Source: an uncultured virus (IMG/VR IMGVR_UViG_3300009159_000038) (lineage: Duplodnaviria > Heunggongvirae > Uroviricota > Caudoviricetes). From it: a stretch of 64,000 nucleotides of DNA. Below, in pieces: positions 2,233-53,800 of the stretch. The DNA is taken from the IMG/VR virus record IMGVR_UViG_3300009159_000038, positions 1-64,000 of that record, one strand, 5' to 3'. Below the pieces are notes generated by a model that saw only the letters and a list, made by a program, of their open reading frames with translations, did not search any database and had not been told where the DNA came from. The position numbers and the translations under genes are program-made. Every line of letters starts with the position of its first letter. Position 1 is the stretch's first letter.

Positions 2233-2664
2233 ATGGAAAAGAAATCAAAAAAACCAAGTTGGAACGAAATTATACATCGTCCACAATTACCAGAAGGATG
2301 GAGTGTTATCGAACAACAAACATCTCTTAAATGTTCAACCACCAATTTTGTTAGATGGGGAAAAACTCATCATAATGGACAACCTGAAAGAATTTGGGTA
2401 GTATTAGTGGAACATAATCCTGAATATTACGCTGTACCTTTCGTTGTTCGAGGAGGATTACATGCTAAAGGTCCTTCAGGATTAAGTTACTTTCAAGACA
2501 TTAAATCAGCAACAGAATGCTTGGTTATTATTATGGAAGCTACTGATCGTTGGATTGAAGAAATCAACTCAGAGAAATATATCAAAGCTTACAATGATAA
2601 AATTGAAGCTGCGATTAAAGCTGACGAAAAACGAAGAAAGGATTCATCCGAACTTTATGCATAA
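2233..2664 (+). CDS. Hypothetical protein
   Basis: ORF in operon, ATG just after gmk stop. Confidence 0.7.
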   Translation: MEKKSKKPSWNEIIHRPQLPEGWSVIEQQTSLKCSTTNFVRWGKTHHNGQPERIWVVLVEHNPEYYAVPFVVRGGLHAKGPSGLSYFQDIKSATECLVIIMEATDRWIEEINSEKYIKAYNDKIEAAIKADEKRRKDSSELYA

Positions 2665-3106
2665 TTATTTAGTAGTATCTCAGAGTGGAGATTTTGGCTT
2701 AAACAAGCAATTAGCTCTAAAGGTAATGAGTATATTGAAGATGGAACATGGAAAAGATTCTGTCTATATAAATGCATCTGGCTTTACTAAAGCGGATTAT
2801 GCATTTAATAAGATTATATTCATTATTCCTGAATGGAATGGAACATATCCATATCTATTCAAACAAATCATCGATAATTCAGAATGGCCTTCTCTTTTAG
2901 ATAAAAAGAAAGTTCTGCTTATTGGTACATCAAATGGTAAATTTGGTAATGTTATGGGAGTCAATCACTTTGAGTATACTCTTAATTATGTCGGTTCTTC
3001 CGTCTTTACGAAGAAGGTTTATGTACCTAAATTAACAGAAAATATAGAAAACGAAGAGTATATAGGTTATCTAAAAGATGTACTATTAGAGTTCCATTTA
3101 GCATAA
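2657..3106 (+). CDS. NAD(P)H-dependent FMN reductase-like flavoprotein
   Basis: IIPEWNGTYPYLFKQIID resembles PEYNGS.P..LK..ID; KKVLLIGTSNGKFG; N-terminal FMN-phosphate loop divergent. Confidence 0.7.
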   Translation: MHNYLVVSQSGDFGLNKQLALKVMSILKMEHGKDSVYINASGFTKADYAFNKIIFIIPEWNGTYPYLFKQIIDNSEWPSLLDKKKVLLIGTSNGKFGNVMGVNHFEYTLNYVGSSVFTKKVYVPKLTENIENEEYIGYLKDVLLEFHLA

Positions 3107-5103: not shown

Positions 5104-5445
5104 ATGAACAAGCTACCTACATATCAAGAGTTCTTAAATGAATCATTAGTTATCCTTTCTTTGAAAGGTATAATGAAGAATGAATTTATGAACAATATAG
5201 AACTTAAGCAAGAGTTCGAAACCGCTAGAAGATTATTCTTCGACAATGGTTCATGTTTATTCGATCACATTGAAGGCGATCGATTTACGCTAAGAACGCA
5301 TTCTACATTCGAAACTTCGGATATGGATGCACTCATTACAAAGATCAACGACGAAATTGAAAGGTTTTCTTTCAAGAGAGTCGGTCCGGCTAAAAAGAAT
5401 ATCATTAAAGAAAATCTTTGGTCTCTTAAAGCCAAACTTAATTGA
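5104..5445 (+). CDS. Putative internal head protein with capsid-targeting-like leader
   Basis: N-terminus MNKLPTYQEFLNES resembles T4 IP leader MKTYQEFIAE; AATATATA upstream. Confidence 0.6.
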   Translation: MNKLPTYQEFLNESLVILSLKGIMKNEFMNNIELKQEFETARRLFFDNGSCLFDHIEGDRFTLRTHSTFETSDMDALITKINDEIERFSFKRVGPAKKNIIKENLWSLKAKLN

Positions 5446-5493: not shown

Positions 5494-6204
5494 ATGACAA
5501 AATACTTTAAGTATTCTGACTTTGAGCAAGCGTTTCTTTGCATTAATGGCGAAATAATTACCAATCCTGAATATCGTTCAACTTCTCGATTAGGTGATAT
5601 GTTAGAAATTCAAAGTCTTACATATGAAGTTGCAGATCCAACAACATATAAATTCACAAACGAAAACATCGGCAGATTAAATTACGATTATGCAGATACA
5701 TTTTATCAATGGATGATATCTGGATCTACTGATAATGAAGCACTTCTTAAAGATTATCCTAATGTTGCAAGATTCATGGAAAAACCTAAATCTCCTGATC
5801 TTCCAGCAAATTTCAATACATTCTATGGTCCTCGTATTCTAGAACAACTACCTCACGTTATCAAAGAACTTAAAGATCATCCTGATACTCGTCGAGCAGT
5901 AATTTCTATCCTTGATAAAAGTGATGTACTTCTTCTCGATAAACCAAATGAAACTCTTGAATTTCCTTGTTGTGATTCTGCAACATTCTCTATTCGTGAA
6001 GGTAAGCTGAATATTCACTTACATATGCGTTCACAAAATATAGGTCAAGTACTTAAGCTGGATATGTATCTATGGGGTAGATTTCAAACGCAAATTGCTG
6101 AAGAATTAGGTTTACCTGTTGGTAGATTCGTTTCAACTGTAGTTTCTGCTCATGTATTCGAAAAAGATATTGCTTACTTAAATGACTTAATTATTAATTC
6201 GTAA
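5494..6204 (+). CDS. Thymidylate synthase-fold dCMP-modifying enzyme (gp42-like, atypical)
   Basis: YGPRI, DTRRAVISI, catalytic PC, MRSQN...D (Asp at the N177-equivalent), SAHVF. Confidence 0.85.
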   Translation: MTKYFKYSDFEQAFLCINGEIITNPEYRSTSRLGDMLEIQSLTYEVADPTTYKFTNENIGRLNYDYADTFYQWMISGSTDNEALLKDYPNVARFMEKPKSPDLPANFNTFYGPRILEQLPHVIKELKDHPDTRRAVISILDKSDVLLLDKPNETLEFPCCDSATFSIREGKLNIHLHMRSQNIGQVLKLDMYLWGRFQTQIAEELGLPVGRFVSTVVSAHVFEKDIAYLNDLIINS

Positions 6205-6214
6205 ATCCAAACAA

Positions 6215-7531
6215 ATGAAAGATAAAAAACTCCAAGTATTCTATGCAGTTCAAGTATCAAACTTTACATTAGTAAATGGCAAACCTAAATGGTTATTGCG
6301 AAATGATGCATGCACTAACATTGCAATCGGAATCATCTCTACGGTTTTAAAGAGATATCCTGATCAATTCAAATTTTTAATTAAACTTCCTTCTGCTTAT
6401 GATACAGTAGATGTGGTTCAATTAGAAGATCTATTTAAACCAGAATTTCATAAAGATATCGAATTTCTTATTGATGATATCCCTCATTCTCCAGTAACTA
6501 GTCGCTATCATTTCGATATGCAACGATATCTCGTTCATCCTGAATATGCAAAAGCTTTCAGCGAAGTAGATCTTATGATTAATGATGAAAATACATTAAC
6601 GAAGAATTGGCGAGTACTTTTCAATGAAATGAAATTAACCATCCCAATCATTTCTACGAATTATTTCCTCGATTCACCTATCGCAAATAAAGTTCCAGAA
6701 AAACTTCGTTATTATGAACGTCAAATGGAATCTTTTATTACATCGGATATTGCTGCATTTCAATGCGAAGCTGGCAGAGTCGAAGCTATGGAAGCTTATG
6801 ATGTTTTATTTAAGACTCGTGAGATTCTAGCTCCTCAATCCGTATGGGGTGTTGGTGCACATTATGCCGAAATCGAAGAATATCATACAGATAAAAAATT
6901 CGAGATACCTACAATTTACTTTGGCAATCGTATTTCGGATACTGCAAATCGTTATACTAATTATGATACATTCGCCGAAGCAATTGGTATTCTATCGACT
7001 ATCACCGATAAACCATTTCGAGCAGTAATGCTTAATCCAACTCGTAAAGTTACTGCCGATCAATTGAATTTAATTGCAGATCTATCTAAACATCAAGTTG
7101 AAGTAATGTCTAACGATGAAAAATTCACTCGTCAAGATTATCTAACATTCATCAACAAATCTCATATTGCTTGTAACCTATTCGTCACCGAAGTTCATGG
7201 TGGTGTTACTCATTGTGAAGCAATGATGGCTAAGAATATTTTGGTAATGCCTAAAGTAAATAATTACTGGCACAAAATGAAAAAGGCTGGTCATGAAGAT
7301 TATCCTCTATTCACTGCACTCGATTCAACGAATTCTCATAAACCAGATGCTCGTGATGTAGCAGAAAAATTGAAGATTGCTCTTAATTATATAGATACTC
7401 CTATAGAAAATCAATTAAGAGAATTATGTCATAATGTCGGTTATAAATACGAATCTTACGAATCTGCTTGTGATCGTATCGTAAATGATATACGTTCGCT
7501 TGTTCTTCCTATCTTGAATAATAAAAACTAA
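6215..7531 (+). CDS. GT-B glycosyltransferase (GT4/alpha-GT-like)
   Basis: YFGNRISD and EVHGGVTHCEAMMAKNILVMP nucleotide-sugar-binding segment; adjacent to the TS-fold gene. Confidence 0.7.
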   Translation: MKDKKLQVFYAVQVSNFTLVNGKPKWLLRNDACTNIAIGIISTVLKRYPDQFKFLIKLPSAYDTVDVVQLEDLFKPEFHKDIEFLIDDIPHSPVTSRYHFDMQRYLVHPEYAKAFSEVDLMINDENTLTKNWRVLFNEMKLTIPIISTNYFLDSPIANKVPEKLRYYERQMESFITSDIAAFQCEAGRVEAMEAYDVLFKTREILAPQSVWGVGAHYAEIEEYHTDKKFEIPTIYFGNRISDTANRYTNYDTFAEAIGILSTITDKPFRAVMLNPTRKVTADQLNLIADLSKHQVEVMSNDEKFTRQDYLTFINKSHIACNLFVTEVHGGVTHCEAMMAKNILVMPKVNNYWHKMKKAGHEDYPLFTALDSTNSHKPDARDVAEKLKIALNYIDTPIENQLRELCHNVGYKYESYESACDRIVNDIRSLVLPILNNKN

Positions 7532-7540
7532 TTAACAATT

Positions 7541-7575
7541 TGACGAGGAGTAATCATTTGGTTACTCCTTTGTCA
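7541..7575. other. Intergenic stem-loop
   Basis: TGACGAGGAGTAATC-ATTT-GGTTACTCCTTTGTCA imperfect inverted repeat; no strong U-tract. Confidence 0.5.
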
Positions 7576-7591
7576 TATAATAATTAAACAT

Positions 7592-8146
7592 ATGGCAAAC
7601 TTAATTCTACTTGAAGGCTTATCCAGAACAGGCAAATCAACTATTTCAAAATCGATTGCTGATGAATTTGGATTTCGTAATTTCTCCATTAAGACTAAGA
7701 TGCCGGATTATGTACAAAATTTACCTGATTTTTATCATGGTATGCACGTTTTAGCAAATGAATTATTCAGATCTTTTCCCCATGAAACTTTCATCTTAGA
7801 TAGATCTTTTTTATCTGAGATGGTTTATTCTCAATTTTTTAACAGACATTCATATATAAATAACGATCAAGTCATTTGCGATTTACTTCTAGATAACAAG
7901 TTTATACTTGTACTTCTAGATAACAATCATCAAAATTATTTAGATCGTGGACCAAAAGATAAAATCACTTATTCTGAACAAGAATTTATTAAACAGAAAG
8001 ATCTTTTCCAATGGCACTTCCATAATTTCCGTGACAAATACGATCCACAATCATGGCGAGATAGATTTTTACACATTGATACATCAATCACAACTCTAGA
8101 AGATACAACAAAACAAATTAAAACAAAGATAAAACAAGTATTATGA
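7592..8146 (+). CDS. dNMP kinase (thymidylate kinase-like)
   Basis: LEGLSRTGKST P-loop, ILDRSFLSEMVYS. Confidence 0.8.
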   Translation: MANLILLEGLSRTGKSTISKSIADEFGFRNFSIKTKMPDYVQNLPDFYHGMHVLANELFRSFPHETFILDRSFLSEMVYSQFFNRHSYINNDQVICDLLLDNKFILVLLDNNHQNYLDRGPKDKITYSEQEFIKQKDLFQWHFHNFRDKYDPQSWRDRFLHIDTSITTLEDTTKQIKTKIKQVL

Positions 8147-9300
8147 AAAATAAAGCAGCGATAGTAACCGGTAGTTCAGGTCTTATTGGTTCGCAAACGG
8201 TTAAATCTCTTATTGAAAAGGGATATTATGTGATTGGCATTGATAATGATATGCGATCATATTTTTTCGGATCCGATGCATCTACTAAAGAATCTGAACA
8301 AAAAATGTTATCTGATTATGGTAGAGAAAAATTCAATCCTGTAAGTATCGATATTCGAGATTATGAAGGATTGGAATTCGTATTCAAATATCTAACAGAA
8401 AATATAACTACTCTTCTTGGAGAACCAGTTGAATTTGATTTTGATTTAGTTGTTCATACCGCAGCACAACCTTCACATGATTGGGCAGCTAAAGAACCTC
8501 TAACTGATTTTTCTGTTAATGCAATCGGTACCATGAATTTACTAGAATTAACTCGACTATATGCACCAAAAGCAACCTTCATCTTTACTTCGACTAACAA
8601 AGTTTATGGTGATACTCCTAATCGTTTGAATTTAGTTGAATTGGAAACTCGATATGAAGCAGTATCTAATCTTTCGAAAAATCTTATCGAGGTAGATGAA
8701 TTTATGTCAATCGACCATACTAAACATTCCATCTTCGGTGCATCTAAAGTTGCTGCTGATATTATGGTTCAAGAATATGGAAGATATTTTGGAATGAATA
8801 CCGTAGTATTTCGAGGTGGTTGTTTAACTGGACCTAATCATGCAGGTGCTGAACTTCATGGATTCTTATCTTACTTAATCAAATGTATTGTTAATAACAA
8901 ACCTTATACCATCTTTGGTTATAAAGGAAAACAAGTTCGAGATAACATTCATTCATCAGATCTAGTAAATATGTTCTGGCATTATCATCAAAATCCTATT
9001 CCAGGTGCAGTGTATAATGCAGGTGGTGGTCGAGAAAACAGCACATCTATTCTTGAAGCTATCGCAACCACAAATACTATTCTTAAAGAAGAAAATCCTG
9101 AACATAAAGATTGGAAGAATTTCAAAATCTCCAATGATGCTCGAATCGGTGACCATCAATGGTATATCTCAGATCTAACTAAATTTAAGACTGATTATCC
9201 ACAATGGCCTGGAATTACAATTTCATTAGATGAAACTATTCGTCAAATAATCAAATTTGAACAAACAAAAACAGCTGAAGTACTAAATGAAGCGAATTAA
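8143..9300 (+). CDS. NAD-dependent nucleotide-sugar epimerase (CDP-tyvelose/paratose 2-epimerase-like)
   Basis: TGSSGLIG, AAQPSHDWA, STNKVYG, HSIFGASK, GKQVRDNIH, RIGDHQWYISD. Confidence 0.9.
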   Translation: MKNKAAIVTGSSGLIGSQTVKSLIEKGYYVIGIDNDMRSYFFGSDASTKESEQKMLSDYGREKFNPVSIDIRDYEGLEFVFKYLTENITTLLGEPVEFDFDLVVHTAAQPSHDWAAKEPLTDFSVNAIGTMNLLELTRLYAPKATFIFTSTNKVYGDTPNRLNLVELETRYEAVSNLSKNLIEVDEFMSIDHTKHSIFGASKVAADIMVQEYGRYFGMNTVVFRGGCLTGPNHAGAELHGFLSYLIKCIVNNKPYTIFGYKGKQVRDNIHSSDLVNMFWHYHQNPIPGAVYNAGGGRENSTSILEAIATTNTILKEENPEHKDWKNFKISNDARIGDHQWYISDLTKFKTDYPQWPGITISLDETIRQIIKFEQTKTAEVLNEAN

Positions 9301-10555
9301 CATTGGCGTAATCATTTATACGAAGATTGGTACTAAAACTTCTATTCTTCTAGGAGAATTCGAGTTTTGGAACGATTTTCAACGAATGAACCCTGATTGT
9401 GACTTCTATTTTATATCAATATCGAAGAACACAACAAAGAGTATTATTGACCATCAACATCTACTTAACTTTCCAGTTAGGATGATACAGGTGTATGATG
9501 TGAAGGATCTTTCCAAGCTAAATAACCTTTCTGGGATATTTTCATATATGACTAGAAATACCTTCTTTGGAGGTCAAATGAATCCATCATGTGTTCATAA
9601 TTACGTGATATCTGCTTACTGTAGCAATACGCTAAACCTTCCTTTATTTATTAGAACTCCTGATTCAGAATATCCCTATTTGGATTATAAGAAAATGGCG
9701 GATGTTCGAATTGAGAAAGCTACACCAAGTACACCTAAATTCATTAGAGAAAATAAACGTTTTCTAGATGTTATGACTGCAGATATCAAATATGAAAATG
9801 TTTATTTTGTAGCCAATGGATCTCGTCATATGTGTGATTGGGTACAAGATATTGTATACCATGATATTCCAGATGTTATGAGAATAATGGAACCTAAAGA
9901 AATTTCTAGAAGAACTCTTTATGTTTCGGATGATGTTCTATTCAATCTTCATATTAATAGAGAGCGTTATGCAAATCTAAATGTTGAAGTAAAGAATAAT
10001 AAGCTTTTGTTTATTGGATTCCTTTCCGGATCAGTTGCAAAAAATCGTTTAGTTGCTTTAACTAAAATGTTGAAGGAAAAAACCGAAGAAATTCCTATGG
10101 ATATTATTGGACCTGGAGCAGATTTGTTGATAGAAGATATTATTCGTGAGGATGTTACTCTTGAAAACCGTTCAGTTTTTGGTGATGAATTTTTCAAGCT
10201 ACTTAATACATATTTAGCTTATGTGTTTATTGGTAAAGGTAATGCGATAAACAAATATGTAAACAAAACAATTTACGATTGTATATCTGCAAAATGTCCT
10301 ATTGTCGTTTACTCTGCATGTGATACTAATCAAGCTATTTTTAAGAGCAACGAATATTATTTCTCTAACGAATCCGAACTAAAAACAACCATGGATAAAT
10401 TAAGAGATCCTGCAATTCGTAATCGTTGGATCGATGAACAGAAAGCTGATATTGAAGAAAAATTAACACATAACGAAGAGATATTTAAGTTCTCTCAATT
10501 CTGTAAGCCTAAAGATCAAGTTGTTAATAACATTAGAATCGAGCCATTATTCTAA
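9287..10555 (+). CDS. T4 DNA beta-glucosyltransferase-like protein
   Basis: NTFFGGQMN vs T4 BGT NFFGGKPN; TPDSEYPY vs FTDIRLPF; C-terminal AYVFIGKGN..YFSNESEL..LRDPAIR colinear with BGT (reference recalled from memory). Confidence 0.75.
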   Translation: MKRINIGVIIYTKIGTKTSILLGEFEFWNDFQRMNPDCDFYFISISKNTTKSIIDHQHLLNFPVRMIQVYDVKDLSKLNNLSGIFSYMTRNTFFGGQMNPSCVHNYVISAYCSNTLNLPLFIRTPDSEYPYLDYKKMADVRIEKATPSTPKFIRENKRFLDVMTADIKYENVYFVANGSRHMCDWVQDIVYHDIPDVMRIMEPKEISRRTLYVSDDVLFNLHINRERYANLNVEVKNNKLLFIGFLSGSVAKNRLVALTKMLKEKTEEIPMDIIGPGADLLIEDIIREDVTLENRSVFGDEFFKLLNTYLAYVFIGKGNAINKYVNKTIYDCISAKCPIVVYSACDTNQAIFKSNEYYFSNESELKTTMDKLRDPAIRNRWIDEQKADIEEKLTHNEEIFKFSQFCKPKDQVVNNIRIEPLF

Positions 10556-10571
10556 TTCATAAAATAATAAA

Positions 10572-11186
10572 ATGAATATATTTGTACTAGATCAAGATCC
10601 GAGAATTGCTGCACAAATGCATTGTGACAAACATGTTCCAAAAATGATTATCGAACATGCGCAAATGATGACGGCTGCATATTATTCTACTTTAGGTATT
10701 AGCCGAAAGAAAGAAATTCCGGATCAACAATTTGTAGTAAATGAAATGTTTCGCGGTTGGCCTAGAAGAAATGCCGATGGAAGTGAATGGCATTATGCAA
10801 TATCACATGTCAATCATCCATGCACAATTTGGACACGAGCTTCAATCGAGAATTTTAATTGGTTACTAGATTGTACTGAAGAACTTTGTTACGAATTCAC
10901 TCGTCGTTGGGGTGGTAAACATTCAATCGAAAAGATCGTAGATTGGATGCGTCAAAATCCTCCTAAATTGCCTTCTTCTAAACAAACTCCTTTCGCAATG
11001 GCAATGCCGGATTGTTTTAGAACTACTAATCCGATTGAATCTTATCGTAGATACTATGGCATGAAAACAACTTACATGAAAGTAGCTTGGATTCGAGGAA
11101 CTCAACCGGATTGGTGGTCAGATCAATTTGCCAAAGATTGCGTTAATCAATATTATATTGCAAACCCAGCCTTGTTGGTTGGATAA
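10572..11186 (+). CDS. Pyrimidine-dimer DNA glycosylase/endonuclease V-like family protein
   Basis: MNIFVLD.DP..AAQMHCDKHV.KM..EHAQM, HVNHPCTIW.R, TPFAMAMPD, YRRYY. Confidence 0.8.
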   Translation: MNIFVLDQDPRIAAQMHCDKHVPKMIIEHAQMMTAAYYSTLGISRKKEIPDQQFVVNEMFRGWPRRNADGSEWHYAISHVNHPCTIWTRASIENFNWLLDCTEELCYEFTRRWGGKHSIEKIVDWMRQNPPKLPSSKQTPFAMAMPDCFRTTNPIESYRRYYGMKTTYMKVAWIRGTQPDWWSDQFAKDCVNQYYIANPALLVG

Positions 11187-11811: not shown

Positions 11812-12134
11812 ATAAAGACTGTAATTGTAAGAATTGCGAATGCAAAGAAAGAGAATCTTTTTATCTAACATTCGAAGATTATAAACCTTTTACTGATAGT
11901 TATTTCAATGGATCTCTTGTTCGTAAATTTCCTAAAGAGACACCGGCTCATTTACTCAAATGGCATATAGACGATGAAGATCGTACAATATATCCGGTAG
12001 AAGAGAATGATTGGAAATTTCAATTTGATAATAAGTTACCTATCTCGTTTGATAGTAAAATTGAAATTCCTAAGGGAATTCAACATAGAATAATAAAAGG
12101 AACCACCGATCTAATCATCTTAATCGAAAAGTAA
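11805..12134 (+). CDS. Small cupin-like phage protein
   Basis: WHIDDEDR, WKFQFDNKLP, IPKGIQHRIIKG. Confidence 0.6.
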   Translation: MVNKDCNCKNCECKERESFYLTFEDYKPFTDSYFNGSLVRKFPKETPAHLLKWHIDDEDRTIYPVEENDWKFQFDNKLPISFDSKIEIPKGIQHRIIKGTTDLIILIEK

Positions 12135-12523
12135 TGGCTATTATACAACAAGAATTTCAACACGATCCATGGAAAATGCTTATAGGTTGCATCATGCTAA
12201 ATCAAACTAGCAATAAAAATGTACGCCAAGTAATATACGCATTCTTCGAGAAATGGCCAAATCCACTTTCCGTTTTACGAGCAAATCCAGATGATATTCG
12301 AGAACACATCAGACCTTTAGGATTCTATAATCGTAGAACTGCTACTATACAAAAATTCTCACAAGATTACATATCTAAATCTTTTAATCGAATAAGTGAA
12401 CTTCATGGCATTGGCAAATATGCCGAAGATTCATATGAAATCTTTATTCGCGGTAATGAAAATGTACAACCAACCGATAAGATATTGATTCGTTATCTTG
12501 CCGGTGAATTTATCGATCAATAA
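12134..12523 (+). CDS. MBD4-like HhH-GPD mismatch DNA glycosylase
   Basis: HDPWKMLIGCIMLNQTS, RPLGFYNRR, ELHGIGKYAEDSYEIF, PTDK match the MBD4 catalytic domain. Confidence 0.85.
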   Translation: MAIIQQEFQHDPWKMLIGCIMLNQTSNKNVRQVIYAFFEKWPNPLSVLRANPDDIREHIRPLGFYNRRTATIQKFSQDYISKSFNRISELHGIGKYAEDSYEIFIRGNENVQPTDKILIRYLAGEFIDQ

Positions 12524-14296: not shown

Positions 14297-14902
14297 ATGC
14301 CTAAAACATTCATGAAATATCAGGATTTCGTTGATCCTAAAAGATCAGGGAAATATCAGAGCATCACGATATTTGATGTTGATGATACGTTAGTCGTAAC
14401 TAAATCTCAAATTAAAGTAATTGATACTAATACCAATAAGTCTTTTACTTTAACTCCGGCAGAATTTAATGAATTTGAAAAGAAATCTCATCATGAAATG
14501 GATTATTCAGATTTCAAAAACCTAGATATTCTAAAGGCCGGTAAAATTATAGAAAATATCTTCTCTATCCTTAAGAAAGAAATGCGTAAAGGCGGAAGAG
14601 TTGGTATTATCACTGCCAGAGACGATCGAAATCTAATCTATCAATTTCTACTTCATCATGGAGTAGTGGTTAATCCAAATTACATATTTGCAGTTAATGA
14701 TCCTGAACTTGAATTTACTGGAAGCGTAGCTGAAAAGAAAAAACAAGCCTTTATAGAATTAATAAAGATTGGATTTAGAGACTTTACATTTTATGACGAT
14801 GATGCTGAAAATATACGAATTGCTAAAGAGTTAGATGGTGAAATTGAAGGTATACATATTAAGACTAAACATGTAAAGGTAAGATGGAACAACAAAGACT
14901 GA
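14297..14902 (+). CDS. HAD-superfamily phosphatase
   Basis: FDVDDT (motif I), TAR (II), K (III), YDDD (IV). Confidence 0.8.
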   Translation: MPKTFMKYQDFVDPKRSGKYQSITIFDVDDTLVVTKSQIKVIDTNTNKSFTLTPAEFNEFEKKSHHEMDYSDFKNLDILKAGKIIENIFSILKKEMRKGGRVGIITARDDRNLIYQFLLHHGVVVNPNYIFAVNDPELEFTGSVAEKKKQAFIELIKIGFRDFTFYDDDAENIRIAKELDGEIEGIHIKTKHVKVRWNNKD

Positions 14903-15363
14903 TACACCGAAACGATCAAAAGATTGATACATTCGCAGAAATCGTTGAATCGATTGCTACTTTATCTGCCGCATCAACTAAGAAAGTTGCATGTATGGCT
15001 ATTCACAAAAATTTTATTAAGATTGCATCCTTTGGATATAATGGATCTTATGCTGGTGCTCCCATCAACGAAACAACTGGAACCGAAGAAGATTCGCTAG
15101 AACCTGGTAATTCAGGATTTATTCATGCAGAAGTTAACATGATTTCGAAATTTCGAGAACATGATCCTGAAAATTATATCGTTTTTCTTACGCTTTCTCC
15201 TTGCAAAATGTGCACTAAGATTCTAGTTAATTCTGGATTTAAAATGGTGTATTGGTTAGAAGATTATCGAGAACAAGAACATCTCACTATTTTCGATGAA
15301 TGTGGAATTCATTATGGTAATATAAACAAACTCAAAAAAGATTATTTCAAATTAGTAAAATGA
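14884..15363 (+). CDS. dCMP deaminase
   Basis: GYNG, HAEVN, TLSPCKMC. Confidence 0.9.
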   Translation: MEQQRLIHRNDQKIDTFAEIVESIATLSAASTKKVACMAIHKNFIKIASFGYNGSYAGAPINETTGTEEDSLEPGNSGFIHAEVNMISKFREHDPENYIVFLTLSPCKMCTKILVNSGFKMVYWLEDYREQEHLTIFDECGIHYGNINKLKKDYFKLVK

Positions 15364-15782
15364 AATATACTCTAACAATTCTAAAACCAGATGCAATATC
15401 TCGTGGAATAGAATCTAAAATCACCAAACACATAACCGATGCCGGTTTTCAAATTGCCGCTCGTAAAAGAATTCACCTAACAAATGAAGAGGCCTACGAT
15501 TTCTATGAGGTACACAAAGACAAACCTTTCTTTAGATCTCTTGTAGATTACATGACTTCTGGAGCTTGTGTATTTATGGTTCTTCGTAATGAGAATTCTC
15601 CTAATGCAATAGATCATTTTCGTAAGTTAATAGGATCTACCGATCCGGCTGAAGCAGAGGAAGGAACCATTCGTAAAATGTATGCAGAATCCCTAGAAAG
15701 AAACTCTATCCATGGATCTGATTCACCGGAATCAGTTATTAAGGAGTGTGATCTTATGTTTCCGGAATTATCGTTCAATTAA
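15360..15782 (+). CDS. ndk: Nucleoside diphosphate kinase
   Basis: LKPDA, FY.VHKDKPFF, GTIR, NSIHGSDS. Confidence 0.95.
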   Translation: MKYTLTILKPDAISRGIESKITKHITDAGFQIAARKRIHLTNEEAYDFYEVHKDKPFFRSLVDYMTSGACVFMVLRNENSPNAIDHFRKLIGSTDPAEAEEGTIRKMYAESLERNSIHGSDSPESVIKECDLMFPELSFN

Positions 15783-16157: not shown

Positions 16158-17023
16158 TGAAATATATCATAACATCAAAAAATGTTCGTTCTGGTACTAG
16201 CGTAGATGATGCCGCTGATCCATTTCAAGTTACCGAAATAGCAACTGAATTAATAATAACTCGGTTGTATTTGATACATCTGTTAAATACCTCGATTATA
16301 GACATTGAAGATACTATCGTATGTATAGGAGATAGACGATGTTTATATACAAACATTTTCAAAAATGTTATGTCATTCGAAGATTATACTAATTCTATTG
16401 ACATCGATAAAAAAGATGTTATAGATCTATTAGAATCCAGCAAATTTAATTCGCTTGCCTCTGGATTAGTAGACTCGAGAGAATTACCATATCTACCTTT
16501 TTATCGAAATTGGGATAGAGATAAAAATCATATTTTAAACGTTGAAGATAGTGATCTATCAGATTATGATTTATCTTCACCGTTCTTGTGTTTAGTTATT
16601 CGAAAACGAAGTGCATGGTCAGAAAAAAACATGTCAAATGATTTTTGGAATGATGTTATATCTGAATTAGAAAATCGAGGAATTAAAATATTCGTATTTG
16701 GAAAAGAAACTGAGGGTTTTTGTACAGAAAAAACGAAGCAAATTAAAACATTTCGAGATTGGTGTTCTATTGTTAAACATGTTAATTGTAAACATGTTGC
16801 TAGTACAATGACTGGTGGAGTATATCCTCTTATCGTATTTGGAAATTCAAATTGTAAAATGACAATAATCGACAATACCAATCTTAAGAAAGCTCATGGA
16901 CACGATCCATCGTTCTATAACTCATGTATAAATTTCTCTAATATCGAAATGAAATTTATCGAAAATATACCAACAATAAAAGAATTTGCCGATGAATTAT
17001 GTAGTAATTACATCAATAAATAA
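16157..17023 (+). CDS. Hypothetical protein, possible glycosyltransferase-like
   Basis: C-terminal Rossmann-like RKRSAWSEKN..W..IFVFG..STMTGG; lies between DUF4254-like and STELLO-like genes. Confidence 0.45.
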   Translation: MKYIITSKNVRSGTSVDDAADPFQVTEIATELIITRLYLIHLLNTSIIDIEDTIVCIGDRRCLYTNIFKNVMSFEDYTNSIDIDKKDVIDLLESSKFNSLASGLVDSRELPYLPFYRNWDRDKNHILNVEDSDLSDYDLSSPFLCLVIRKRSAWSEKNMSNDFWNDVISELENRGIKIFVFGKETEGFCTEKTKQIKTFRDWCSIVKHVNCKHVASTMTGGVYPLIVFGNSNCKMTIIDNTNLKKAHGHDPSFYNSCINFSNIEMKFIENIPTIKEFADELCSNYINK

Positions 17024-17975
17024 TTTAACCGAATCTATTCGAAAATTCTCGGCAATACCGGATTGGCATGTTATTGTTGTAGGCGATTTAAAGAGTAAAA
17101 GATATTCACATCCAAATGTGACTTATCTAGGAGTAGAAGAACAAACGAAACTTAATTTATTTAGTGCATTAACAACTCCATACAATCATTATTCAAGAAA
17201 GAATTTAGGTTATTTGTACGCTATAAGTAAAGGAGCTAATCTAATTTTTGATACTGACGATGATACTATTCCGTATGATGATTGGTATCCAAGAGATTTT
17301 GTATGCGATAAATTGGTAGATGGATCAACCGTTATCAATCCCTATACGCTATTCACTAAAGAAAAATGTTGGCCTAGAGGATTAGACCTATCTCATATAA
17401 ATAAGCCAAATACTTACACGATATCTAATAAAGGCTCAAAGATAGGTGTTTGGCAAGGAGTAATTGATGATGATTCAGATTTTGATGCAATATATCGATT
17501 AACCATAAATAAGCACATAAAATTTAATAAAGAAGATGATGTCGCAATAGGAACACGATGTTACACCCCTTTCAATACACAAAGTACTTTATGGAATACT
17601 AAATTTCATTCTTTGCTTTATGTTCCCATCTCAGTAGATTTCAGATTTACGGATATTCTAAAAGGTTATATAGCTCAAAGAATTATGTGGGATTATGGAT
17701 ATCAGGTGGGTTTTCATTATCCTAACACATATCAAGTTAGAAATGAGCACGACTTCTATAAAGATTTTCTAGACGAGATTTCCATGTACCGATCAATTCC
17801 TTCATTGATGAATACTCTAGAAAGTATAAAACTCAAAAATGAGTCTATTGAAAATGATCTATTTTCGGTTTATTCTGCTTTATTAGATATTGGCATCGTG
17901 AAAGAGGAAGAGATGATAAACCTACAACATTGGATAGATGATATCTCTAAGTTATCTAAAAAGGATTTAAGGTAA
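16992..17975 (+). CDS. STELLO/DUF288-like GT-A glycosyltransferase
   Basis: VVGDLKS, PYNHYSRKNLGYLYAI, DTDDD, WPRG, DFDAIYRL, PFNTQ, FRFTDI. Confidence 0.85.
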   Translation: MNYVVITSINNLTESIRKFSAIPDWHVIVVGDLKSKRYSHPNVTYLGVEEQTKLNLFSALTTPYNHYSRKNLGYLYAISKGANLIFDTDDDTIPYDDWYPRDFVCDKLVDGSTVINPYTLFTKEKCWPRGLDLSHINKPNTYTISNKGSKIGVWQGVIDDDSDFDAIYRLTINKHIKFNKEDDVAIGTRCYTPFNTQSTLWNTKFHSLLYVPISVDFRFTDILKGYIAQRIMWDYGYQVGFHYPNTYQVRNEHDFYKDFLDEISMYRSIPSLMNTLESIKLKNESIENDLFSVYSALLDIGIVKEEEMINLQHWIDDISKLSKKDLR

Positions 17976-18672: not shown

Positions 18673-19935
18673 ATGGCTACTGGACCATACACCAATTCGT
18701 TAAACTTTCGTTTAAACCGAACAAAACCTCTAAATTATACAGATTTAGATAATAACTTTAGATATCCAAATCAATGGGGACTCGATCGATCATATCTGTC
18801 AGGTATGATGGTTGTTTCGTATGATTTTGGTTATACTGCATCAGATTCAATATCTATGTATATTGCTTCTAGCGATCATACGAGTACTATGCTTAATGCT
18901 CCAGGATTAACTGGTGCTCAATGGACTGCAATTGCAGTTCCTAGTGCTGGATATGTTGGTCCAACCGGACCTCAAGGTGGAATTGGTGCTCAAGGTGCTG
19001 GATCTCAAGGATCTCAAGGTCCTCAAGGTTATCAAGGTGTTACCGGTTTTCAAGGAGTTCAAGGATCTCAAGGAGCTACTGGTATTCAAGGACATACTGG
19101 ATATCAAGGGGTTCAAGGTACTAAAGGAGATCAAGGTTTTAAAGGAGATCAAGGATTCCAAGGAGCTCAAGGTTATACTGGTAATAAAGGAGATCAAGGT
19201 TTTCAAGGTATTCAAGGAACTGTAGGTAATCAAGGATTCCAAGGAGCTCAAGGAGAACAAGGAGATCAAGGTAACTCTATTACTGGATCTCAAGGAGATC
19301 AAGGATTTCAGGGAGATCAAGGATTTCAGGGAGATCAAGGTACTAAAGGAGATCAAGGTATTCAAGGTATTACTGGGCCAGGAGTTGGGTCTCAAGGACC
19401 TACTGGTTTCCAAGGTATTCAAGGAGCTAAAGGAGATCAAGGATTTCAAGGTATTCAAGGATCTAAAGGAGATCAAGGATTTACTGGATTTCAGGGTAAT
19501 CAAGGACCTACCGGTTTCCAAGGTAATCGAGGTAATCAAGGATATCAAGGAGATCAAGGTTATCAGGGATATCAAGGTTATCAGGGATATCAAGGAGATC
19601 AAGGATTTCAAGGATTCGATACAGCATATGCTGCTATAAATAATCAAGTTTCTAGTTACACATTAGTGTTAGCCGATGCTGGTAAATTAGTGGAAATAGA
19701 TAATGCCGCATCTTCAATTCTTACGGTTCCTTTGAATGCATCGGTTGCTTTTCCTGTAGGTACTCAAATTATTATTGCTAGACTTGGTACTGGTGAGGTG
19801 AGCGTTGTTGGTACTGGTGGTGTAACGGTTGTTAGTGCAAATTCATTTACATTCTTAAATAATCGATACTCATCTGCATCTCTCATAAAAAGAGGTACCA
19901 ATGCATGGTATCTATTTGGAGATCTTAAACCTTAA
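18673..19935 (+). CDS. Collagen-like tail fibre/decoration protein
   Basis: N-terminal LNYTDLDNNF, long G-X-Q array (about 18958-19615), C-terminal YTLVLADAGKLV..FPVGTQI..WYLFGDL. Confidence 0.85.
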   Translation: MATGPYTNSLNFRLNRTKPLNYTDLDNNFRYPNQWGLDRSYLSGMMVVSYDFGYTASDSISMYIASSDHTSTMLNAPGLTGAQWTAIAVPSAGYVGPTGPQGGIGAQGAGSQGSQGPQGYQGVTGFQGVQGSQGATGIQGHTGYQGVQGTKGDQGFKGDQGFQGAQGYTGNKGDQGFQGIQGTVGNQGFQGAQGEQGDQGNSITGSQGDQGFQGDQGFQGDQGTKGDQGIQGITGPGVGSQGPTGFQGIQGAKGDQGFQGIQGSKGDQGFTGFQGNQGPTGFQGNRGNQGYQGDQGYQGYQGYQGYQGDQGFQGFDTAYAAINNQVSSYTLVLADAGKLVEIDNAASSILTVPLNASVAFPVGTQIIIARLGTGEVSVVGTGGVTVVSANSFTFLNNRYSSASLIKRGTNAWYLFGDLKP

Positions 19936-47840: not shown

Positions 47841-50800
47841 ATGGCAAATAAGATACTAAAGAGAACCTCATTCGGTCTCATAAGAACTAATCCTAGATTA
47901 TCAACTAACGTAAAAATAGTTGCAAGCTCTTCAGATGAACTTTTTCTGGAGAGTATAGACTCGAATCCAATTTTAAGTAGCTCTTTATATAAAGGGTATG
48001 GAGTACAAGGTTACTATTCACAAGATCTTTTTAATTTTTTCAATCAAGGAAATGCAATTCCTAAAAATCTTCTTTACGAAGTATACGAAGAAGATGGAGC
48101 TATTTCAGTAAAAGATCGTTATAAATTTCAAAGAGATTTCACATATGCTTTAGGATCTTATCCTAAAAATTCAAAGTTATATACCGAAGAATTTGCTGCA
48201 TTTGCTCCTCTTTGGTTAGAACGAGACAATATTCCTGACTATTTTATCATATTTAGAATGGATGGTCCAGTTACCAAGAATATCAATACTGCTGAATATT
48301 CTGGAATTGATAAAGATACTGATCCTATATTGGATAAACTTATTAAAAGTCCAGATCTATTTTTCTCTAATTATATTCAAAAGGCTAAAATCATTGCTCA
48401 ATTTGATCTGACTGGTAACACAAACGTTGGATCATATATTCGTCGACATGTCAATGATCCTAATTTCCCAGAAGCTCCTCTATACTTTTCGCCAGAAGAA
48501 GGAGATTTAACTTATTGGCAAGGAATATCTCTAGATGAAGGCGGATTCACTAGAAAATCAGAGCCAATTAATACTGAATATGTTTTACCAGACAAGACTA
48601 TAATTGAATCTGAAGATTTTATCACGTTTGGTTTTTCTAGAAATTCTATTGTTTGTGCAAATCTATTAAACATGGAATTTTTATTCGATGATACCGAGCA
48701 AGAAGATTACAAATTCTATCGTTACTTTGGTATGTACGTTAGTGAACAGGAATTAGGACAATTCACGATTGATCCAGATAGGCTATATGCCGATAGATTT
48801 GTTGAAAATACTCAATCACCAATTCCTATTCTTCCTAATGTAGGAGATCCAACATTAGCGGAAAATCAAATACAAACAAATCCAAAAGGTCTTAAAGTTT
48901 ATCCTAGAATTATTACAGGTTCTACCGGAATTTATTCAGGTAGATTACTTACATGGGAAGAAACTCAAAAACCGAGGTTTGGTTATTTAAAAGATACCCT
49001 TGGTAATGTTTATTCAATAGACAATAATTATAAATGGGATAGCGAATATCAAAATCCAGGAACAACGGCTAAAGGAGATACATATACCGATAGTTCATTC
49101 TTAAGAGTAAAAGATACTACCGTCAATTGGGCAGCATTTGGCGGATTCCAAGAGCCTTTTAAGTATATTACCACTCAACAAAATGGATTGAATGGAAGTG
49201 CTAATTTTGCATTTGATGTACTAAAAAAACCAAAAGGAAAGGATCAGATTAGAATTAAATATATCAATCCTACTAATTCAAAGGCATCTACTAAAATTAC
49301 AACCGGTAATACCTTTAAAGCTTTAATAGATCAATATACAATTAGAGGAAATTCCAGTCTATCTGCCGGAACTAATGATGGAAATGAATATAGTACTTTA
49401 GGTACAACCGATCAAGTTGCTAGTTCAATAGCATTAGCTATTAATAACATAACATCATTAATTACAAGAGATCCTAGTAATTTCGGTGAAGAAATTTTAT
49501 TTGAAGCGGTTTCGCAAAAATCGACAGTAGTTGTTTATTATAAAAATACATCTGAAATTTTTAACAATATAGAATTTAGTATATTTGCTGACGTTCTTTA
49601 TGCTGAAGATATACCTTATTCCAGTCCTTCCTCTTTATCTGAATGGAATCAAGAACAATATTTAGCATCTCCAATTTTTACATCAACCGGTGCCACTTAT
49701 AATGCATCTCAAATGGGATTTGTTTATAAATATAAATTTGTAGGAGGAAATACGAAACCAGGTACTAGATTTATAATTGAAAAAGATTTTGTTGATAATT
49801 TCCTAGATCAAACCGATAAAACTTATGTTAAAACCGATAAAGGATATTCTACAATAGTTCATGAATACTCGAATTATCTAGATTCTCCTCTTTATGAAGG
49901 AGCTAATATTGTTGGATTTACCGGACTTGATAAATATTATGTTCTATCGATAACCGAGAAAACTCATTCATTAGAAATAGGAAGTGAAGGAAAGATACCT
50001 TTAAGAAAGCTAATAAAAAATTCAGTTGGTTATCTTTCATTAATGCCTATTAGAGATTTTGATTTTGACTTCTTCAATACAGATTACAATAAAGATGGAG
50101 ATGCTTCATTAGACAATCTATTTGAATGGGAATTAGGTGAAGGAGTTTTAGGAGATGGTTATGTTGCCGGTTCTTATGCCGGAGCCACTTCGCTTTTAGT
50201 TACCACTAAAAATGCCTTCACTAATCAAACTTTATATCCTATTCCAGTTGGTGCAAATTCACCTTCATTAAGAGTGGTATTCGCAAAAAGTCCTACTGGA
50301 GAAAAAGGTATGACCGGAGCTCTGCTTAATTTGCATGAAATATACACAACGGTAGATGGCGGAGATACTTGGAACATTTATCAATCTCTACCCGCTTTTG
50401 ATTATATCGATTTAGATTGGGCAGAAAACGATATTTTTATGTCATCTTCATCGGAAGAATATCCTACTATTAGAAAATTTAGCGTTACTTCGACCGGTGC
50501 AAGTCAACTAGCAATTATAAAATTAATGGATTATCCAAATTTTGGAATGCGAACTTTATCGGCTATCAACGAAGATGAGGTTGTTTTTGCTGGAACTAGA
50601 ACATATCCTGAACCAGCCGAATATCCTGAATATTTTCCATATCAAAATCAGAATGAATTGTTCTTCTATAACAGACCTTATGGTAGATGGACTACGATAG
50701 GTGCAACCGCAATAGCTCCAATAACCCGAGCAGATTTAGGTGCTGAAGGTATTCAAGGAGGAATTGGTCAATTTGCAAGCGGAGATCCACAAGCAACATC

Positions 50801-53800
50801 TTATCAATCTGCGTATATTGGCTCAAATTTTGGATTTAAACTTCAGGCAAATTTAGTCAATCCTTTTAATTTTTGTCAATTCGGAATACCGGGTAATACA
50901 GGAGGTGGAACTGCTGGAGATATGCCACTTTGGAGTTGTGGTGACGGAAGATTTAAAGTTGGTCCAGATATCGTCGCATACAATGGATTAGGTGCATTAC
51001 TTACTGCTCAAGATATGTCTGGTGGAGGTGCATCTGCTGAATGGGTATTTCAAAATATTTCGACTGGAGCTACTACTGTAGCAGCGTTTGGTATTACTGG
51101 ATCTTATTCAGATCATTATAATGTTATGGACGGAAAACCAGTAGGTGCCTTATCTTTCTTTAGTGTTGGAGGAGCTGGATCTAGCGCATCCGTATATTTG
51201 GGAAAAGACATGGTGCTCAGTAATTATTTAGTAAGTAATTATAATACAACTAGAAAATATGTTATCGGAAGAAATATGTGGAATCAAAATGATTTTGCTA
51301 CTCAATTCGGTAATTCATTAAATTTAGTATCTGCAACCTTTCCAGAATTCGGAGGAATATTTACTGCAACTTGGAATCAGGGAGATGATCCTATCTATAA
51401 TGCCTCATTTGATATGCCAGGACACTCAATTTACATACCTGAGCAAACTGGATGTGTTGCTGCAATTCCAACCGGTACAAACACCGATTCATCAATATGG
51501 GGCAAAGCGACGAATTTAGATACTGGTTTAATTGGACCGGCAAATCTAACATTCGATTATCGACAAATGTATTGGGATACGATTCCAGCAAGTGCTCCAA
51601 CTGCCGGATATGGTTATGGTTTACCTAAATTTGATGGAATTGATGGTGAATTATACCTTCAAACTGGATATGCCATAGATGCTATTCAATCGAATAATTT
51701 TACTTTTCGATCAATATATCATGTATGGAAGTGGAGTGCTAGTCTAAGTCAATGGCGATGGGAAGATCGTACTCTTTATGATAATGAAATAGCGGTTAAA
51801 ACGGTTACATTTGAAGATAAACCTATTTGGTTTGGTGTAGCTCCTCTAGGAGGAATTGAGGCAGTAGAAGCTAGTGGCACTGGAAACTTAAATACTGGAG
51901 GAACTATTTTCTCATGGGATGAAGATAGAGGAATTCAAGTTCTTTATTATTTTGGTGGAACTGCTACAGTTCAACCAAGAGGTTCTTTGATTGACGATCC
52001 AACAAACTCGGGTTTTCATCGACTTTTCGGTTGCGCAAGTGGAGGACCTTTTAGTCTTGATCTAGATGCCCTTTATTCAACTGCTCTTCCGGCAAATTTT
52101 ATGTTTCCTAAAGATAATACTGGACAATTCCAAGCTAACAACGGTTCGATGTTTACCACAACATCCACTTTTGGAAGTGGTATTTTAGGAGGAATTTCGA
52201 TTGGATCTTCGGCAAATCCTCATAGATTACATGGAGTATCATCCGCTGGAGGAATTGGCGGACAAGGAGTTGTATGGAGCTATGATGCTAATTTACCAAT
52301 TAATGTTAGTACTTCATATCAAGTAGAAGCTAATTTTAAAGGAGCTACAAATGGAGCTAATCCTCTTTATGCTCCATTCCAAGGTCCTGAAGGATTCGTT
52401 TATGGAGATGTTTATAGCGGATCCGATTTTGGATTAGGAGCTCTTTATAAAATTGCTCCGATTGCTCCTACTGGACAGGTTTGGTATGGAAATTTTGACA
52501 CTAATTATATTTCCGGTTTAACTGGATCCGGTACTATATTTGAAGATTATGATGGAGAATCCGAATTCGTTTCGATATCTGCTACTAAATCTGCGCAATT
52601 CCATACTGTTGGTAATACGGTAGTTGCACTATCGAATTATTCAACTGGCCTTATAGGATCTGTAGGAGCTAGTGCTGGTCCCTGGATTTATGGAACTAAA
52701 TTTATAGGTTCCACTTCGTTATCCAATCAATATCAACCAATGGGACCTACTGGAGCCAGTGTTGGAGGTACTTCTGGTGGATACTTCTATTCATTTAATC
52801 GAGTAAAGAATTTCCCTTGGTTAGGATCCACTGCAAATCCGGATTATTATGTTGTAAGTGGACAATCCACATTCGCTAATACTTCTGGAGCAACTTCAAT
52901 TGTAATATCTAGAGGAATTACTGGATTCTCACCTATAACAGATTACGGTATAATTAAACCGATACCTACTAGTCTTAATTTAGGTTCTGGTCCAGCATAC
53001 TCAACATCGGCACATGAAAATGATTTTGGATTATTATCTTTATGGACCTTAACTCAAGGAGGAAATCTTCTAAATTCAGTTATCGGAACAACTTCAGTCA
53101 ATGTGGCATGGGGAAGTATCACTTTACCAGGAGCTACTAATACAAGTCCTTCATTTGGAGAAGATCTAGAAATATTCCCAGTAGATATTCCTGATGAAAA
53201 TCCATTTGTTCAATGGTGGGCGCTTACCGAGGAATCTAGAAACAATGTTACCGAAGCCGTTGGTGCTGAATCTCCTTTTACCATCACTGGAGGATTCCAA
53301 AAACTTATTGGTTTATACAATGAATATGATGATACGGCAGATGACATAACAAATGAATATGATCGTCTAAAAGAAAATGACAATCCTACACTTTCAGTTT
53401 ATTCTAGAGTAGTTCCATTTATAAACAAATGGGTTTATGATAATGAATCAACTGACGTTAGAGAAAATGGATATCGTCTAAATGTCGATCAAGCATTCGG
53501 TATGTTCAATTTTACGCCTTCATTTGATGAATATAATAGAAATCCCAAGCTATTTACTCATGAATGGTATTATCTACAAGAATATCCCAAGTATATGACA
53601 TTCGATGAAAAGCGAAATTCATTTTCATATTTCGATTCAGCAATTATTAATCCTACTGGACCTACTGGTGATTATGCTTCTTATACAGGAATAACCGGAT
53701 CTTCCGGTGGTGGTTTATATAGTATAGTCGATGATTATTTCGTTGATTATTTCACTAGAGAAACGGTGGATGGAAATCCAGTGCCTAGAGATTTTAGATA

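Follow-up and report, generated by a model that had tools for sequence, protein, structure and literature searches.

A probable 5-hydroxycytosine glycosylation cassette with exchangeable sugar genes in an uncultured jumbo phage

Introduction

Glycosylated 5-hydroxycytosine was established in 2025-2026 in coliphages, an Acinetobacter phage and a Rhizobium phage (PMC13326640). The corresponding gene clusters are gp45-gp55 together with gp3 in RB69, gp76-gp83 in the Acinetobacter phage DLP3 and gp214-216 in the Rhizobium phage RL38J1, and the same source points to further reports of the class, namely the Afh genes of HY126 (He et al., Nat Chem Biol 2026) and Mahler et al. (Cell Host Microbe 2025). 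Two thymidylate synthase (TS) homologs from these clusters, RB69 gp48 and DLP3 gp80, were shown experimentally to be flavin-associated synthases of 5-hydroxy-deoxycytidine monophosphate (5-hydroxy-dCMP, 5hodCMP) (Lee et al., NAR 2026, PMC13326640). The residue put forward there as diagnostic is D169N, and 5-hydroxydeoxycytidine (5hodC) was the product of all nine diverse D169N homologs, which include IMG/VR sequences; the supplement text of that paper holds no IMG/VR identifiers. Here we analyse a five-gene cassette that resembles these clusters in the first 64 kb of a 133,957-bp record of an uncultured virus (IMG/VR IMGVR_UViG_3300009159_000038), a stretch referred to below as the window.

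The original prediction placed five contiguous open reading frames (ORFs) at 5494-10555 and read them as a cassette dedicated to the modification of cytosine at C5 and its glycosylation, distinct from that of T4. All five are present on the + strand and tightly packed, with gaps of 10 and 60 nt and two junctions that overlap by 4 and 14 nt (Table 1). The fold or family named for each of them holds in Pfam and PHROG profile searches and in matches to PDB and model folds. Our results support a dedicated cassette that differs from the one in T4, and we consider it likely from the combined analysis that the cassette makes glycosylated 5-hydroxycytosine DNA and not hydroxymethylcytosine.

Results

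ORF1 carries the residues of a 5-hydroxy-dCMP synthase

ORF1 matches the Pfam family Thymidylat_synt (PF00303; E 4.3e-13, 49.5 bits against a cut-off of 24.3). It is most closely related to TS homologs from RB69-like and Marfavirus phages and to the PDB entries 9iqu, 9iqc and 9ir2, with E about 2.5e-76 for 9iqu/9iqc; MilA and ThyA structures were matched as well. ORF1 is 53% identical to RB69 gp48 over 231 aa (E 2e-90), compared with 24% to T4 gp42 (E 2e-8). When aligned with E. coli ThyA, T4 gp42, RB69 gp48 and the homolog of Klebsiella phage EI, ORF1 keeps the catalytic Cys146 and carries L143E, D169N and N177D (E. coli ThyA numbering). These three substitutions are the signature published for flavin-dependent 5-hydroxy-dCMP synthases (PMC13326640), N177D going with a preference for cytosine and L143D being an alternative to L143E. 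The segment MRSQN stands opposite QRSCD of E. coli ThyA, and EFPCC and LKLD are also present. T4 gp42 has Asp both at ThyA position 169 and at the N177 position.

The pair Asn169 and Asp177 is found in 7/7 cassette TS homologs. We compared it with the canonical ThyA of a 254,393-bp viral record, G001, which appears to come from the same phage as the window; the proteins encoded in the first 15.5 kb of the window are 100% identical to those of G001. The canonical ThyA of G001 (204810-205871, E 1.1e-97) keeps Asp169 and Asn177. Because ORF1 carries Asn169/Asp177 while G001 has this separate canonical ThyA, ORF1 is not the dTMP enzyme, and we predict it to be a flavin-dependent 5-hydroxy-dCMP synthase. 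Asn169, N177D, L143E and the 53% identity to gp48 together argue that the expected sugar attachment is an ether on 5-hydroxycytosine.

The core of the cassette is conserved in related loci

The order TS homolog, GT-B transferase, thymidylate kinase (Tmk)-like kinase in the window equals that of gp48, gp47:46 and gp45 in RB69, gp80-79-78 in DLP3 and gp216-215-214 in RL38J1 (PMC13326640 Table 1). A search for related viral loci returned 11, and after removal of duplicates (two pairs) and of one 4-kb fragment, eight distinct loci of at least 15 kb were left. A TS homolog lies just upstream of a homolog of GT1, the transferase encoded by ORF2, in seven of the eight, all but L014. Synteny of this extent indicates that the arrangement is not due to chance.

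Other parts of the cassette vary. The form of ORF4 described below, with Phe in place of the catalytic Tyr, occurs in 6/8 loci, and GT2, the transferase encoded by ORF5, in 2/8. The sugar genes of the relatives include a GDP-mannose dehydratase (Gmd)-like gene, extra short-chain dehydrogenases/reductases (SDRs), GT2-family transferases, a DegT aminotransferase and an acetyltransferase. Hydroxylase, GT1 and kinase form a constant core, around which the sugar genes are exchangeable.

Some of these loci have further neighbours. A U32-family protein and a UDG-family protein are encoded in L014 and L018, and the GT1 homologs stand beside the peptidase-U32-family protein (L014:8296-10130, L018:6114-7184), as with RB69 gp50. 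L014 also has a DAHP/Kdo8P-synthase-family gene, and there is no TS homolog in its 15.7 kb.

GT1 and GT2 are two GT-B-fold transferases

Neither GT1 nor GT2 had a sequence match in Pfam, PHROGs, NCBIfam, the PDB or 50,697 phage records; metagenomic homologs numbered 162 for GT1 and 53 for GT2. Structure models of both were of high quality (predicted local distance difference test scores, pLDDT, of 90.8 for GT1 and 92.0 for GT2). The best fold matches of GT1 were 3mbo, 6kih and 3c4q, placing its GT-B fold closest to MshA, BshA or sucrose-phosphate synthase. The same three PDB entries are also listed for the DNA arabinosyltransferases of RB69 and DLP3 (PMC13326640). A fold search of BFVD with GT1 gave generic viral GT-B matches only.

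For GT2 the best fold match was a DNA glucosyltransferase, the beta-glucosyltransferase (BGT) of T4, 5 Z units above other GT-B enzymes, and the BGT-type GT-B fold spans the full length of the protein. The profile match between GT2 and BGT is weak and covers 82 C-terminal columns only (hhalign probability 81%, E 1.2e-5); within it, Glu272 of BGT stands opposite the invariant Asp331 of GT2. The claim of two GT-B transferases, one of them BGT-like, was therefore upheld, the likeness to BGT being one of fold. No relation between GT1 and GT2 was seen in hhalign. For 12 of the 53 GT2 homologs, the longest contig has the same size as that of a listed GT1 homolog, which is consistent with co-location of the two genes. 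We regard GT1 as probably the base-proximal transferase, because it is the transferase that is conserved among relatives.

A putative 5hodCMP kinase and the supply of triphosphate

ORF3 matched phrog_761 with E 1.6e-16 and scored 18.4 bits against Pfam Thymidylate_kin, below the cut-off of 27. Its similarity to RB69 gp45 is weak (27% identity over 85 aa, E 2e-4), and its position equals that of RB69 gp45, DLP3 gp78 and RL38J1 gp214 (PMC13326640 Table 1). No similarity to T4 gp1 was seen in ORF3, and a homolog of the gp1 kinase was not found in G001 or in two further records, G002 and G003, in a single-protein search that had no positive control. These three records are 83, 91 and 80% complete, and absences from them are provisional because completeness is in the range of only 80-91%. 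We predict that the Tmk-like ORF3 is the 5hodCMP kinase. A nucleoside diphosphate kinase (NDK) encoded nearby (Table 1) could complete the triphosphate. That the phage has its own kinase and a nearby NDK, as had been proposed, is supported.

ORF4 belongs to a Tyr-less branch of tyvelose-epimerase-like SDRs

ORF4 is an Epimerase-family SDR (PF01370, E 6.9e-37), in agreement with the family assigned to it earlier. Its best PDB matches, at E about 1e-30, are the CDP-tyvelose 2-epimerases (TyvE) TaTyvE (9rl0, E 5e-31) and StTyvE (1orr). The TyvE triad is Thr124-Tyr164-Lys168, with Tyr164 as the proposed catalytic base (PMC13098431). Like TyvE, ORF4 keeps the Thr (Thr151), the Lys (Lys202), the TNK segment and the NAD-binding motif, and STNKVYG is present in 120/120 close homologs of ORF4. 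Unlike TyvE, it has Phe for the catalytic Tyr, PSH for the sugar-contact segment VAM and about 30 extra residues inserted in its N-terminal third.

The Phe form is widespread. All 120 close homologs (at least 73% identity) have Phe at the position of the catalytic Tyr, and among 150 representatives of 50%-identity clusters we counted 113 with Phe, 9 with Tyr, 5 with Leu, 2 with Met and 21 without a recognisable motif. PSHD is carried by 79 of the 113 Phe-form representatives. These sequences apparently form a large, conserved Phe branch of tyvelose-epimerase-like SDRs without a characterised member. The Phe-form SDR of L013 and L015 is accompanied by an adjacent conventional SDR that bears the Tyr.

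ORF4 probably edits a nucleotide sugar. The original prediction went further and had the epimerase make a non-glucose donor; because the catalytic Tyr of the nearest relatives with solved structures is missing from ORF4, epimerase activity is not to be assumed, and we do not accept donor production as shown.

Upstream ORFs and enzymes of the nucleotide pool

A few kb upstream of the hydroxylase gene lies an FMN-reductase-like ORF (Table 1), with copies in six of the eight syntenic loci. Its start at 2657 was inferred from an alignment with five relatives, and it shares with them a PEWNG(S/T) motif, which reads PEWNGT in the window. It had no match in the PDB or in phage records. A role as the supplier of reduced flavin to the hydroxylase is speculative. 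A second ORF, orf113, has 48-53% identical copies in L011, L013 and L015, in each case immediately upstream of the gene for the TS homolog; orf113 had no match in Pfam, PHROG, NCBIfam or Atlas.

Table 1. Features of the window, with positions counted from its first nucleotide
Feature	Position	Strand	Length	Profile match
FMN-reductase-like flavodoxin-fold ORF	2657-3106 (listed ORF 2555-3106)	+		Pfam FMN_red, E 1.4e-5, 25.1 bits, cut-off 24
orf113, conserved ORF directly upstream of the TS gene, possible cassette part	5104-5445	+	113 aa	
ORF1, TS-fold enzyme, predicted flavin-dependent 5hodCMP synthase	5494-6204	+	236 aa	
ORF2 (GT1), GT-B, GT4-like glycosyltransferase, core transferase of the cassette	6215-7531	+	438 aa	
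ORF3, thymidylate-kinase-like P-loop nucleotide kinase, predicted 5hodCMP kinase	7592-8146	+	184 aa	
ORF4, extended SDR, CDP-tyvelose 2-epimerase-like branch, catalytic Tyr replaced by Phe198	8143-9300	+	385 aa	
ORF5 (GT2), T4 BGT-like GT-B transferase, variable second transferase	9287-10555	+	422 aa	
dCMP deaminase, pool enzyme as in T4	14884-15363	+		PF00383, E 5.8e-14; phrog_174, E 3.5e-25
NDK	15360-15782	+		PF00334, E 3.7e-46

Other DNA-related genes were seen outside the cassette. Downstream of it in 5/8 loci are a phrog_624/Pyr_excise-like ORF (10572-11186 in the window) and a 129-aa HhH-GPD protein (12134-12523), and a Fpg/Nei-like gene at genome positions 121407-122225 (L008:17407-18225) is the third DNA glycosylase-like gene. 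Nth- and Nei-type glycosylases classically act on 5-hydroxycytosine, and it is conceivable that the three DNA glycosylase-like genes are linked to the modified base. A MazG-family ORF at 196587-196772 of G001 could serve to clear dCTP. The dCTPase gp56 of T4 was not found in G001-G003 in a single-protein search without a positive control, nor was ThyX found in these records.

The phage is a distant T4-like jumbo phage

The genome is, by its gene content, that of a distant T4-like jumbo phage. It encodes a gp20-type portal, gp32, UvsY, UvsW, a split family-B polymerase, ribonucleotide reductase and a T4-type terminase. The portal is closest to that of uncultured 'huge phages' (57.7% identity to LR756500.1), followed by Sphingomonas phage PAU and the Lak phages. 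The polymerase is encoded in two ORFs, at genome positions 79565-80965 and 85023-86231, about 4 kb apart and with the ribonucleotide reductase genes between them. In a simple ORF call, the + strand carried 138 of 140 ORFs. At genome positions 114595-117833 (L008:10595-13833), genes for a TROVE/Ro-like protein, SmpB and a CCA-adding/poly(A) polymerase-family enzyme lie near one another, whereas tRNA genes were not found in the window. The window also encodes a 420-aa collagen-repeat protein (18673-19935) and, inside the tail/baseplate region, a 2655-aa ORF (47841-55808) that had no Pfam match.

Further glycan genes are present in this phage. At genome positions 64321-68446 (L006:321-4446), the gene for a 609-aa GT2-family protein precedes those for PA14/GLEYA and LamG-domain proteins, and a STELLO-like glycosyltransferase is encoded in the window at 16986-17975; these genes may form a separate set for protein or surface glycosylation. 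Far from the cassette in G001, there are GDP-L-fucose-synthase-like, RfbH/DegT-like and GDP-mannose-4,6-dehydratase-like proteins (174637-176715, corresponding to L036, and 245801-246781, corresponding to L033).

Discussion

The cassette shares with the RB69, DLP3 and RL38J1 class the D169N TS homolog, an adjacent GT4-like transferase and the presence of more than one transferase, and, elsewhere in the genome, a separate canonical ThyA, a dCMP deaminase and an NDK. It differs from that class in its BGT-like second transferase, its Tyr-less TyvE-like SDR and the conserved FMN-reductase-like ORF upstream. The lineage is also different: an uncultured jumbo phage near 'huge phages', PAU and Lak by its portal, and not a member of the Straboviridae or Pootjesviridae. 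The arabinose supply module of RB69 (gp51-55) and of HY126 (Afh) has an arabinose-5-phosphate isomerase with a SIS domain and a bifunctional kinase/uridylyltransferase. With respect to the isomerase, none of the three incomplete records had a homolog of RB69 gp55 (a single-protein search without a positive control) or a match to SIS (PF01380), and no nucleotidyltransferase of PF00483 was found in G001 or G002. From this gene content we predict that the sugar does not come from the arabinose route of RB69 and HY126. The differences from the glucosyl-hydroxymethylcytosine pathway of T4 (gp42, gp1 and alpha-/beta-glucosyltransferase) are a predicted hydroxyl instead of a hydroxymethyl group, Asn where gp42 has Asp, a Tmk-type kinase, an extra SDR and a GT4-like first transferase.

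In the pathway that we favour, the TS homolog would use O2 and reduced flavin to hydroxylate dCMP at C5, a reaction shown for homologs only. The resulting 5-hydroxy-dCMP would be converted to the triphosphate by the Tmk-like kinase and then NDK, and the split family-B polymerase would incorporate it into DNA in place of dC. GT1, kept in all relatives, would then place a first sugar onto the 5-hydroxyl of the base in DNA, while GT2, in some relatives only, would add a further sugar or act on a second set of sites. The Tyr-less SDR would edit the nucleotide-sugar donor. Such a base would protect the DNA against restriction enzymes and CRISPR nucleases, an effect shown for the DNA of RB69 and DLP3; glycosylated 5-hydroxycytosine DNA resists restriction enzymes, and DNA modifications have been reported to protect against CRISPR-Cas (PMC13326640).

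A pathway of the T4 type, in which the TS homolog is a folate-dependent dCMP hydroxymethylase and both transferases glycosylate 5-hydroxymethylcytosine (hmC), was implied by the original prediction. It would account for the TS fold, for the Asp at the N177 position that ORF1 has in common with T4 gp42 and for the likeness of GT2 to BGT, whose acceptor is hmC, and several GenBank records label the RB69-type homolog as dCMP hydroxymethylase. However, ORF1 has Asn at position 169 against Asp in gp42 and is far more similar to RB69 gp48, and every D169N homolog tested gave 5hodC and not 5-hydroxymethyldeoxycytidine (5hmdC) (PMC13326640). We therefore regard hydroxymethylation as very improbable. 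It is less remote, but still improbable in our judgement, that action on nucleotides is limited to the TS homolog and the kinase, whereas the transferases and the SDR build a non-DNA glycan, for example on a virion protein or as a polymer of the host surface. Surface glycan loci are where GT4-like folds and TyvE-like SDRs typically occur, and further glycan genes lie beside fibre-like proteins in the genome. Set against this are the adjacency of GT1 to the D169N TS homolog in 7/8 loci, the position of GT1 in the slot of the RB69, DLP3 and RL38J1 DNA glycosyltransferases and the fold of GT2, nearest by 5 Z units to a DNA glucosyltransferase. Furthermore, unglycosylated 5-hydroxycytosine DNA is not reported for these families in PMC13326640.

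Several observations count against the cassette making glycosylated 5-hydroxycytosine as we have outlined. The RB69 kinase shown to phosphorylate 5hodCMP is of the gp1 type and not Tmk-like (PMC13326640). GT4-like folds are common in polysaccharide synthesis, and GT1 gave an hhalign probability of 0.1% and no sequence similarity when compared with the Marfavirus glycosyltransferase at the equivalent position in Klebsiella phage EI. We infer the order of GT1 and GT2 solely from which of the two is conserved. The other glycan genes of the phage (GT2-family transferases, the STELLO-like transferase and Gmd-, Fcl- and RfbH-like enzymes) could put the cassette enzymes to non-DNA targets. The SDR family is also found away from TS and transferase genes, as in the uncultured phage LR745206.1, where neither is present within 12 kb of the SDR, and the Protein Atlas clusters nearest to ORF4 are mostly bacterial. 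Lastly, TyvE Tyr164 stands opposite Phe198 in ORF4 (HSPYGCSK compared with HSIFGASK), so the canonical catalytic Tyr is gone.

This replacement, together with the change from VAM to PSH and the lack of a nucleotidyltransferase match in G001 and G002, would fit an SDR that is not a donor-making epimerase. Such an SDR might be an altered NAD-binding protein that acts after transfer, for example by oxidising or reducing the sugar on DNA, or it might be non-enzymatic, and the donor would be a host nucleotide sugar such as UDP-glucose. However, Thr151, Lys202, the TNK segment and the NAD motif are kept, and the Phe form is fixed and strongly conserved, which argues for a working enzyme. SDR sugar enzymes with a replaced Tyr can work. 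Taken together, we find it somewhat unlikely that the SDR is something other than a donor-making epimerase. Our fullest version of the glycosylated 5-hydroxycytosine reading, in which the glycosylated base is new, the GT4-type transferase attaches the sugar, the BGT-like transferase extends it, the Phe-branch SDR makes the donor and the FMN-reductase-like protein is the dedicated reductase of a phage-encoded two-component flavin monooxygenase, is offered tentatively and with limited confidence. The original prediction of an undescribed base can stand at most for the sugar part, the base class itself having been published. That prediction was partly supported: it was right in outline, but its base chemistry was wrong and its claim for the epimerase too confident.

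The locus is probably a variant of the published systems with a BGT-like transferase, an orphan SDR and possibly a dedicated flavin reductase. Other sugar combinations on the same base have been predicted (PMC13326640), and the same hydroxylase-transferase-kinase core is now seen in uncultured jumbo phages of a different lineage, with sugar genes freely exchanged around it. The set of loci is a natural panel for new DNA sugars and new DNA glycosyltransferases, and the locus offers an assay context for a very large family of Tyr-less SDRs. If true, donor production by the Phe branch would be the first testable function for this orphan SDR family.

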